Of a DNA stretch of 64,000 nt, positions 1,511 through 59,316 are shown in pieces. This DNA is from Nitrososphaerota archaeon. Its GTDB lineage: Archaea; Thermoproteota; Nitrososphaeria_A; Caldarchaeales; Calditenuaceae. A program made the translations under genes and the position numbers. Location: assembly GCA_033581555.1 (NCBI GenBank), contig JAVQSZ010000005.1, positions 41,199-105,198 on the forward strand, given 5' to 3'. The notes beneath the pieces were generated by a model. That model searched no databases. It was not told the DNA's origin and worked only from the letters and a program-made list of their open reading frames with translations. The stretch's first letter is position 1. Every line of letters begins with the position of its first letter.

Positions 1511-3003
<1,493 letters not shown>

Positions 3004-12104: not shown

Positions 12105-12230
12105 CCCCCGGTAGCTCAGCCTGGTAGAGCGCCCGGCTGTAGGGTCAGGCCGTGGCCGTGGACCCGCCAGCCTACCAGGCCACACGACGCGGGGACCGGG
12201 TGGTCGCAGGTTCAAGTCCTGCCCGGGGGA
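12105..12230 (+). tRNA. tRNA-Tyr(GUA) with 52-nt intron after position 37
   Basis: Acceptor CCCCCGG/CCGGGGG, D-arm GCTC-AGCCTGGTA-GAGC, anticodon stem CCCGG/CCGGG with loop CUGUAG|intron(12143-12194)|A, T-arm GCAGG-TTCAAGT-CCTGC, C1:G72 and A73 (archaeal Tyr identity); no encoded CCA. Confidence 0.65.
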
Positions 12231-12330
12231 TTAGGTAACGCGCATATCCTGTTCCACAACTGGTGGTGGAGATCGAATAACGCCCAGTGAGTCATGTCCC
12301 TGTTGTTAGGAAATCAACCCATCACGTCAA

Positions 12331-12403
12331 GGCCGCGGGTGGGACTCGAACCCACGACCGCCGGGTCCACAGCCCGGAGTGCTGCCACTACACCACCGCG
12401 GCC
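12331..12403 (-). tRNA. tRNA-His(GUG)
   Basis: Minus-strand sequence G(-1)+GCCGCGG acceptor, anticodon loop CUGUGGA (GUG), T-arm GTGGG-TTCGAGT-CCCAC, discriminator C73 pairing with extra G-1 (His hallmark). Confidence 0.8.
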
Positions 12404-12854: not shown

Positions 12855-14093
12855 CTAGGACACATATTCTGCGTGTTGTGATATGTCAAGTCCTATGACC
12901 TCTTCCCGCGGTGGAACCCTAAGACCTATCGAGACGTCGATGAGCTTAACGATCAGCAACGTGACCACCGATGCGAAGGCCCAGGTCGCAGCTACACCGA
13001 TCAGCTGAGCCGCTATCAATGAAGGGTTGCCTGCCAGCAGACCGTTGACACCTGCGGGGTTGATGGAGGCATCCGCGAATATCCCAGTCGCTATCGCTCC
13101 CCAGGTACCACCCACGCCGTGAACACCCCAGACGTCGAGCGAGTCGTCAACTCCGAACCTCTGCCGCGCGTTAACCGCGATTGAGCATAGAACTCCTGCA
13201 ACAGCACCTATGACCAGCGCGGACGAGACGCTGACGAACCCCGCGGCCGGAGTTACTGCGACCAGACCTGCGACCGCACCGCTGGCTGCAGCGATGCTGC
13301 TGAACTTTCCCCTTGTGTAGTAGTTCGCGATGAGCCATGAAACGGCACCCGCAGAAGCAGCGGCGTGGGTGTTCAGAAAAGCCTGTGACGCCAACGAGCC
13401 GGATGCGAGCGCGCTGCCGGCGTTGAACCCGTACCATCCGAACCACAGGAGCGCAGCTCCCAAGATGACATAGGTCGGGTTACTTGGCTCAAAGGAGGAG
13501 TTGCCATAGCCGAGTCGCCTACCGAGAACGAGTGCAGCCACCAACGCCGACACTCCAGAGCTGATGTGGACGACTGTACCTCCCGCGAAGTCAAGCGCCC
13601 CTATCCCCCTGAGCCATCCACCGCCCCCCCAAACCCAGTGAGCCAGCGGAGAGTAAACGAACGTCGACCAAGCGACGAGGAAGATCAGGAAGGACCCGAA
13701 CTTGACCCTCTCCGCGAACGCACCCGCGATCAGCGCGGGCGTGATCACGGCGAACATCATCTGGTATATCGCATACGTTGAGTGTGGCACGGTCGCGGCG
13801 TAGTCGGGGTTTGGATCAGGGCCGACACCGTTCAGGCCGAACCATTCCAGACCACCGATGAGACCGAATCGATCAGGTCCGAAGGCCAGGCTGTATCCCC
13901 AGAGTATCCACACGATCGAGATGACGCCGACCGCGGCGAAGCACTGGAACAACGTCGATACGACGTTCTTCTTCCTCGCCAGCCCCGCGTAGAAGAACCC
14001 GAGCCCAGGCGTCATTATCATCACCATCGCCGTCGAGGTCAGCAGCCACGCAGTATCTCCCGTGTCCGTTCCCACGGACATCGACCCCCACAT
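12855..14093 (-). CDS. amt: ammonium transporter
   Basis: 412 aa, about 11 TM; Amt/MEP motifs (DFAGGTVVHISSG, GAVAGLVAVTPAAG); amt-glnK pair. Confidence 0.9.
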   Translation of the reverse strand: MWGSMSVGTDTGDTAWLLTSTAMVMIMTPGLGFFYAGLARKKNVVSTLFQCFAAVGVISIVWILWGYSLAFGPDRFGLIGGLEWFGLNGVGPDPNPDYAATVPHSTYAIYQMMFAVITPALIAGAFAERVKFGSFLIFLVAWSTFVYSPLAHWVWGGGGWLRGIGALDFAGGTVVHISSGVSALVAALVLGRRLGYGNSSFEPSNPTYVILGAALLWFGWYGFNAGSALASGSLASQAFLNTHAAASAGAVSWLIANYYTRGKFSSIAAASGAVAGLVAVTPAAGFVSVSSALVIGAVAGVLCSIAVNARQRFGVDDSLDVWGVHGVGGTWGAIATGIFADASINPAGVNGLLAGNPSLIAAQLIGVAATWAFASVVTLLIVKLIDVSIGLRVPPREEVIGLDISQHAEYVS

Positions 14094-58171: not shown

Positions 58172-58267
58172 CCGTGACGTTCCAAACCCCCGACTGAAGA
58201 TAAAAACGTGAACCGTCTCTCCGGGACGCGACAGACATATCAGAGACCGGGCCCGTCTAGGCGAGAG

Positions 58268-58564
58268 ATGCTGGTCTACAAGGGGAGCAAGGAGGCGGTC
58301 GCGAAGGTCGTCGAGCGGATCCTCTCCGACGACATCGGCTCGAGGGCTAACGTCATCGTCAGGGACGCGGCGCAGCTGACCGGAGGCCAGGGCCAGTACG
58401 TCAGGGTGCTCGGGACAGAGGAGCAAGAGGCCAGGGTCAGGGAGCTGGTCGGGCTTGAGCTCGAGGAGGTCAAGGGTGAGGAGCTCGAACGGGTCGTGAG
58501 TGCGCTCCGCGAGGAGGACGAGAGGGCGCTCTCGGGGATGGGGATGATCTTCGGCGGCGAGTAG
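58268..58564 (+). CDS. hypothetical small acidic protein
   Basis: 98 aa from Met 58268 (MLVYKGSKEAVAKVVERIL...); mixed alpha/beta, no motif recognised. Confidence 0.35.
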   Translation: MLVYKGSKEAVAKVVERILSDDIGSRANVIVRDAAQLTGGQGQYVRVLGTEEQEARVRELVGLELEEVKGEELERVVSALREEDERALSGMGMIFGGE

Positions 58565-58752
58565 GACCCGGCGTGCTGACGTGTCACATGCATGCGACTG
58601 TATACCGTATATTATCATGATGCATACGTGACGAATGTTTAATGGGGACGCTTGATAACATTAATGATACAGGGAAATCGGTCTGGGCATCTAGGTTCAT
58701 AATGGCGGCGATCATCTAGGGCGCCCTGGCCACCGCGAACACGCTGTTCTGG

Positions 58753-59210
58753 GTGGTAGGGCAGCTCGGATTCCTGAGGCCGGAGGTCAGCAGGGTCATC
58801 GCCTTCGGCAGCGCGGGGACTTGGTTCACGGTCGGGTACACGACCTACCTGATCGTCGGCGTGGTCGCGATGGCGGTCACGGCCCTCTTCTACCACTACA
58901 TCGAAAACGTGCTCGGTAAGCCCTACACCGGCATAGCCAACACGTTCGCATGGTTACACTTAGTACTGATGAACGTCGGCGTGGTGGGTGCGACTTGGAT
59001 GATGATCGGAGGCTATCAGGGAGGAGCCGCCATGCTGCCGCCCGCCGTCGGGGGGGGGGGGGGGATGGAACGCGACGATGGTGCACGTTAACGTCTTCTA
59101 CGGCATCCCGCTGGGTTATCCGACGTGGATAGCGCTCTTCATCTTCGTGCTAGCTGCCGGGGTCATCTTCGGAGGGCTTGGCTACCTGATAACTTGGCGG
59201 AGGAGGTAGA
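58753..59210 (+). pseudogene. membrane protein gene interrupted by frameshift at G15 homopolymer (59050-59064)
   Basis: ORF 58753..59091 ends 8 codons after a 15-G run; +1 frame continues with hydrophobic helix WNATMVHVNVFYGIPLGYPTWIALFIFVLAAGVIFGGLGYLITWRRR to 59210; G14 or G17 would give one 151-aa 4-TM protein. Confidence 0.45.
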
Positions 59211-59316
59211 CTGCCCCTGACTTTACTCATCAGTATTTTTGTGACACGCGCTTTTTCATTTGTCGCGCAGTTCCATTACGGATGCGCCAACATCCCAATT
59301 TGCCGCACAGCGTGGC

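Follow-up and report, generated by a model that had tools for sequence, protein, structure and literature searches.

A probable pseudogene of a conserved archaeal membrane protein carries a young poly-G tract

Long homopolymeric tracts inside genes are well described as bacterial contingency loci, with poly-G or poly-C tracts in Campylobacter, Neisseria, Haemophilus, Bordetella and Mycobacterium (PMC2831843, PMC1891110, PMC10334774). For the archaea, frameshift hot spots in mononucleotide runs are part of the mutation spectrum of Sulfolobus acidocaldarius, and hyperthermophilic archaea, in which such frameshifts are prominent, lack MutS and MutL (both reviewed in PMC4471258). Here, a run of 15 consecutive G residues (G15) is considered, which lies at positions 59050-59064 of a 64,000-nucleotide stretch, from here on the window, of a Nitrososphaerota archaeon of the Calditenuaceae (assembly GCA_033581555.1, contig JAVQSZ010000005.1, positions 41,199 to 105,198). 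The run sits in the gene of a small membrane protein. This gene is probably a pseudogene of a conserved archaeal protein with four transmembrane (TM) helices, and G15 a recently born mononucleotide repeat within it. All features of the locus are on the forward strand.

Like the bacterial contingency loci, this locus has a long G run within a coding sequence, near-identical genomes have runs of different length, and any change by other than a multiple of three shifts the downstream frame, presumably through slipped-strand mispairing. Unlike them, it offers no intact gene that could be switched, the tract is young (it is missing from a strain of 99.2% nucleotide identity) and not maintained, it belongs to a thermophilic archaeon that is free-living, and its lengths are those of assembly consensus. 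A hypermutable repeat is present in the coding sequence and an ON state with an intact product is not, the longest open reading frame (ORF) of the G11 allele being 150 residues long and without TM1. The locus is placed outside the contingency class because no tract length yields an intact product. With the S. acidocaldarius hot spots it shares an archaeal host and, as the mutational event, the gain or loss of bases within a mononucleotide run; those hot spots, however, are short runs in a selectable live gene studied in culture, whereas here runs of 11-15 nucleotides are found in a dead gene in metagenome-derived assemblies. With ordinary pseudogene decay accompanied by microsatellite birth it has in common several independent lesions that disable the gene, an enrichment of indels and non-synonymous changes at the locus, and expansion after the fusion of shorter runs. 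It falls into this known category: a repeat is born and slips in a gene that is decaying, the host in this case being an uncultured thermophilic archaeon.

An earlier reading of the window, made from the nucleotides only (the sequence-only reading), had described the tract as encoding five Gly in an ORF which ends soon afterwards, with the +1 frame continuing. This description holds: in the frame of the ORF at 58753-59091 the tract reads as five GGG (Gly) codons, eight codons (M-E-R-D-D-G-A-R) follow it before the TAA at 59089-59091, this out-of-frame tail and its stop occupying 59065-59091, and the +1 frame past the tract is open, reading GWNATMVHVNVFYGIPLGYPTWIALFIFVLAAGVIFGGLGYLITWRRR up to a TAG at 59207-59209. 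The C-terminal part of the gene lies in this second frame (59066-59209), where it reads WNATMVHVNVFYG and ends in WRRR before the TAG; the family alignment and a model of an ortholog place the invariant histidine of the family and TM4 in it. By the frameshift, one membrane-protein gene is split into a 112-residue and a 43-residue ORF, and the remnant as a whole, that of a protein of about 180 residues with four TM helices, extends over 58642-59209, in frame 1 before the tract and in frame 2 after it. The unusual length of the tract, to which the same reading had drawn attention, is borne out by the window, in which G15 is the sole homopolymer longer than 7 nucleotides. The longest other G run has 6 residues and the longest C run 7, and an independent-base model predicts about 0.003 G or C runs of at least 15 nucleotides in 64 kb (the window has 64.4% G+C). 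The second-longest homopolymer of the window is the C7 run at 13624-13630.

Searches with the repaired translation, in which the two frames are joined, yielded 559 homologs in Caldarchaeum/Aigarchaeota, Calditenuaceae, Nitrosocaldus and other Nitrososphaerota. Among the matches listed, the full-length homologs have about 170-200 residues at a query coverage of about 100%; the orthologs have 179-185 residues and start about 35 codons upstream of the GTG at 58753. The gene is a member of a conserved Aigarchaeota/Nitrososphaerota family of about 180 residues with four TM helices and the fold of part of heme-copper oxidase subunit I, an identity that was derived solely from homolog searches and fold comparison; searches of Pfam, NCBIfam and PDB sequences with the repaired window protein gave no significant match. 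The AlphaFold (AF2) model of an ortholog of 82% identity (P0002) has a pLDDT (predicted local distance difference test score) of 95.3 and shows four long TM helices (residues 9-39, 54-85, 92-127 and 153-181) together with two short helices, one of them at 139-147. Structural similarity to subunit I is evident, and some orthologs score 22-26 bits against Pfam COX1 (PF00115) at profile positions of about 337-411, which is below the gathering threshold of 34.8. The twelve-helix core with six histidine ligands for the hemes and CuB is absent from this family of four long TM helices in about 180 residues, in which one histidine is invariant and one near-invariant among the 115 relatives compared. 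In contrast to subunit I of heme-copper oxidases and nitric oxide reductases, with at least 12 TM helices, the family gene is free-standing and its neighbours are not conserved. Such a free-standing four-TM module with a partial subunit-I fold, widespread in Nitrososphaerota, is a better lead than the tract itself. The tract falls on a G-G-x-G loop, which joins TM3 to the short helix with the invariant histidine; the three glycines of this loop are invariant in all 115 relatives.

This family context changes the start of the gene. The GTG at 58753, from which the sequence-only reading had begun its ORF, lies at the end of TM1 and is not the family start; the upstream part of the gene is present in frame and is broken by an in-frame nonsense codon, TAG at 58717-58719, which had been missed. 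A run of 14 or 17 G would indeed give a product of 151 residues from this GTG, as had been calculated, but rather than the four-TM protein that was proposed this product is predicted to contain only three of the four long TM helices, as it lacks TM1.

Two intact genes in the same genomic context allow the lesions to be polarised: that of a sister strain (L003, the Logan assembly of SRR7039829), with 99.16% identity to the window over 6 kb, and a more distant ortholog used as outgroup (L019, GCA_025058055.1). The codon at 58717-58719 is CAG in the sister strain and CAA in the outgroup. The CAG to TAG change affects TM1 and precedes the tract by 111 codons; the residue concerned is glutamine in 108 of the 115 relatives (94%) and histidine in the other 7. 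A second lesion is a one-codon deletion in TM3, where ATGATG at 58999-59004 is what remains after the loss of one unit of ATGATGATG, so that WMMMIGG has become WMMIGG; the outgroup has TTGATGATG (three codons) at this site, and in the alignment block of relatives that was inspected the gap occurs only in the window sequence. The TAG and the ATG-unit deletion are found in every tract-bearing allele, including an in-frame G11 allele, and in neither the sister strain nor the outgroup. As all tract alleles carry both, the gene is broken at any tract length, and since no tract length restores the conserved protein the locus is best regarded as a pseudogene. The family has 559 homologs and an intact ortholog at 99.2% nucleotide identity, and relative to the orthologs there are three disabling lesions, the TAG, the frameshift of the window and the loss of a TM3 codon. 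The on/off toggling of a membrane protein, which the sequence-only reading had considered, is not supported by these observations.

Further differences are found at the 5' end of the gene. At 58668/58669 the window has a 6-nucleotide indel junction where the sister strain has ATGGCA, the source of its start codon (MATGKSVWASRF). These six nucleotides are missing from the window and from the G11 and G12 alleles; this is a possible lost start codon, the outgroup leaving the polarity of the indel undecided. Upstream, a putative archaeal TATA-like box (TTTAAT, 58638-58643) lies in an AT-rich spacer, and the ATG of the sister strain, about 27 nucleotides downstream of this box, would fit a leaderless start. 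No structured RNA and no bacterial-type promoter or terminator was found at the locus. Directly upstream of the pseudogene lies a small ORF (58208-58564; 9516-9812 in L011, and 98 residues long in public assemblies) without a Pfam match, whose position is kept in the strain of the window, the sister strain and L019/L020 and which does not stand beside the orthologs of other genera (L013, L014).

A full-length protein could in principle still be made if the TAG were read through or decoded and the G run were bypassed by +1 ribosomal frameshifting or transcriptional slippage. RNA polymerase slippage on long homopolymers is known to give some in-frame mRNAs in bacteria and endosymbionts. Recoding of this kind is nevertheless extremely unlikely here, as a single small gene would have to be recoded twice, independently. 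TAG serves as an ordinary stop, closing 29 of the 99 long open frames of the window and terminating this gene as well, and no suppressor tRNA with a CUA anticodon was found in the window, although 64 kb is a small sample; recoding of the TAG was rejected on these two grounds. Moreover, the genes of the intact family members are each called as one uninterrupted ORF, and in all 115 relatives the site of the tract is free of additional residues, such as the one that the five-glycine repair (G14) would add.

The history of the tract can be followed in the related assemblies. At the tract site, the sister strain has GGGGGGAGGGGA (Gly-Gly-Arg-Gly), in the context GTC GGG GGG AGG GGA TGG (V-G-G-R-G-W), and the outgroup has GGA GGT AGA GGG. 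Within the derived allele the length varies. L018 (GCA_026413725.1) carries G11, in frame, with a protein of 150 residues (P0123, '...AVGGGGWNATM...'). G12 is found in two assemblies, the metagenome-assembled genome (MAG) GCA_025058175.1 at NCBI (L001/L011; protein P0048, 111 residues) and the Logan assembly of SRR7039830 (L002/L012), and the window has G15, with a 112-residue product identical to P0121 (MDW8043564.1); G12 and G15 share one wrong frame. The comparison with related strains which the sequence-only reading had called for therefore gives G11, G12 and G15 within the derived allele and G6-A-G4 in the sister strain. These alleles show an ancestral site of GGG GGG AGG GGA (Gly-Gly-Arg-Gly), in which a single A to G transition in the lineage of the window (AGG to GGG, Arg to Gly) joined G6 and G4 into an in-frame G11, because the sister strain and the outgroup show an interrupted site and the relatives have G runs of only 2-6 residues. 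The order of states is G6-A-G4, then G11, then G12 and G15, and the in-frame intermediate that it predicts exists in L018. The further changes (+1 and +4) probably arose by strand slippage during replication on the long G run and would drift neutrally, with no selection to remove them as the gene is already dead; a regulatory role of the tract is not to be expected. Neutral slippage of this kind would fit both the pattern of hyperthermophilic archaea (PMC4471258) and the general behaviour of homopolymers (PMC2831843, PMC3315296).

Part of the apparent variation could come from library PCR (polymerase chain reaction), sequencing or assembly. Taken to its end, this would mean that the spread of 11, 12 and 15 is purely technical, with one fixed length, most simply G11, and the other lengths produced by PCR stutter, phasing errors or the assembler; the gene would still be a pseudogene by virtue of the TAG. 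Such an explanation is the less likely one. The window differs from GCA_025058175.1 over 15.2 kb by one single-nucleotide polymorphism (SNP) and the tract, and from L018 over 1.8 kb likewise by one SNP and the tract, so that the tract is the sole indel between the window and two otherwise near-identical assemblies, as expected of a site-specific calling problem; long homopolymers are known error sites. On the other hand, the 39 other runs of 5-6 nucleotides agree without exception between the window and the NCBI MAG over the same 15.2 kb, though these are much shorter than the tract, and a consensus error of +3 or +4 would be large for short-read data. Between the two G12 assemblies there are about 14-16 SNP positions in 15 kb, and the same length in both speaks for a reproducible consensus at G12. 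The assembly error that the sequence-only reading had named as an alternative thus applies to the exact length, which may be wrong, and not to the tract itself, which is no shorter than 11 G residues in any of the four assemblies with the derived allele. The tract-length polymorphism among near-identical assemblies (0-1 SNP over 1.8-15 kb) is accordingly one of assembly consensus and not of reads.

Further searches were made for the long run. In a protein-based scan of metagenomes only relatives of 75-83% identity were found, with G runs of 2-6 at the site and no long G run. An exact-pattern scan with the 5' flank gave one unrelated bacterial chance match among genome contigs (L004) and none among metagenome contigs, and a literature search with the run and assembly accessions gave no match. 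No contig was retrieved by an exact look-up of the 112-residue ORF of the window. The window itself reaches 23.5 kb (1-23556, including the 16S rRNA gene) past the start of the otherwise identical contig JANXED010000005.1 and, because of this extension, represents another assembly of the same organism, one that is more contiguous.

The coexistence of in-frame (G11) and out-of-frame (G12, G15) alleles in near-identical genomes also revives phase variation in another form. A protein of about 150 residues and three TM helices, without TM1 and started at the GTG at 58753, would be ON at G11, G14 and G17 and OFF at G12 and G15; the ORF from this GTG is open, and NCBI annotates the 150-residue protein. 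If true, this would be an archaeal contingency switch that toggles a shortened protein in hot-spring populations after the TAG had removed TM1 and, to our knowledge, among the first sequence-documented homopolymer phase-variable genes in Archaea. The idea is very improbable on several counts. The product would lack, together with TM1, the near-invariant residues F19, A22, A23, Q26, G27 and T34, and a residue of its TM3 is deleted. By eye, no TATA-like or Shine-Dalgarno-like element is seen in the GC-rich 30 nucleotides before the GTG, and the tract lies 70% into the gene, far from its 5' end. The excess of indels and non-synonymous changes at the locus fits relaxed constraint, and the same family is decaying independently in another clade.

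The pseudogene reading gains further support from this pattern of change. The window and the sister strain differ over 6 kb by 4 indel events, all of which are within about 600 bp at this locus; three of the four lie inside the coding sequence (binomial p = 0.003), and the fourth lies 27 nucleotides downstream in a T run just 3' of the gene (T5 at 59236-59240, T6 in the sister strain, by alignment). In the gene, the substitutions between the same two sequences are 0 synonymous and 4 non-synonymous, whereas the six genes that flank it have 16 and 8 (Fisher p = 0.024), a sign of relaxed selection that is based on small numbers.

In the second clade (P0003/P0004), an in-frame GAG to TAG change stands one codon before the V-G-G-K-G motif ('MLPP*VGGKGWN'), an independent pseudogenisation. 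It is common to assemblies from ENA and JGI (L016, 1501-1896; L017, 801-1310), and the intact proteins P0003 and P0004 are also in the databases; L017 has in addition a W to C and an L to F change and a tyrosine in place of the invariant histidine. The family looks dispensable elsewhere too. A recurrent truncation at the same loop had been considered, as P0054 and P0060 both end in '...MLPP'; this was rejected as a parallel to the tract, the lesion being a different one, GAG to TAG without a G tract.

Several points weigh against a pseudogene with a newborn repeat. The tract lengths are those of assembly consensus, in which real differences and homopolymer miscalls are inseparable; no sequencing chemistry copes easily with 11-15 G in a row, and the assemblies may not be independent samples. 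The tract may have arisen before the TAG, and in that case it could have switched a gene that was still alive. The contrast between synonymous and non-synonymous changes draws on four substitutions, and of these N/H at 59090 arose in the lineage of the sister strain and not in that of the window. Finally, the 150-residue G11 ORF is annotated as a protein at NCBI.

The locus is mainly of use for annotation and as a caution: the 112-residue and 43-residue ORFs, which public MAGs list as 'cbb3-type cytochrome c oxidase subunit I' or 'hypothetical protein', ought to be merged into a single pseudogene, and the tract length of any single assembly is not to be trusted. Beyond annotation, the locus is a natural snapshot of the birth of a mononucleotide repeat, in which G6 and G4 are joined by a single transition and the new run begins to vary in length, in a thermophilic archaeal group whose handling of replication errors is poorly known. 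If heterogeneity within samples is real, it could serve as a convenient neutral marker for the rate of slippage in situ in uncultured Aigarchaeota.

Elsewhere in the window, an archaeal 16S rRNA gene at 1514-3003 confirms the domain. A full-length tRNA match in Rfam (12105-12230, forward strand, 126 nucleotides, 51.6 bits), which was not called by ARAGORN, adjoins the tRNA-His at 12330-12403 on the reverse strand and is probably an intron-containing archaeal tRNA.
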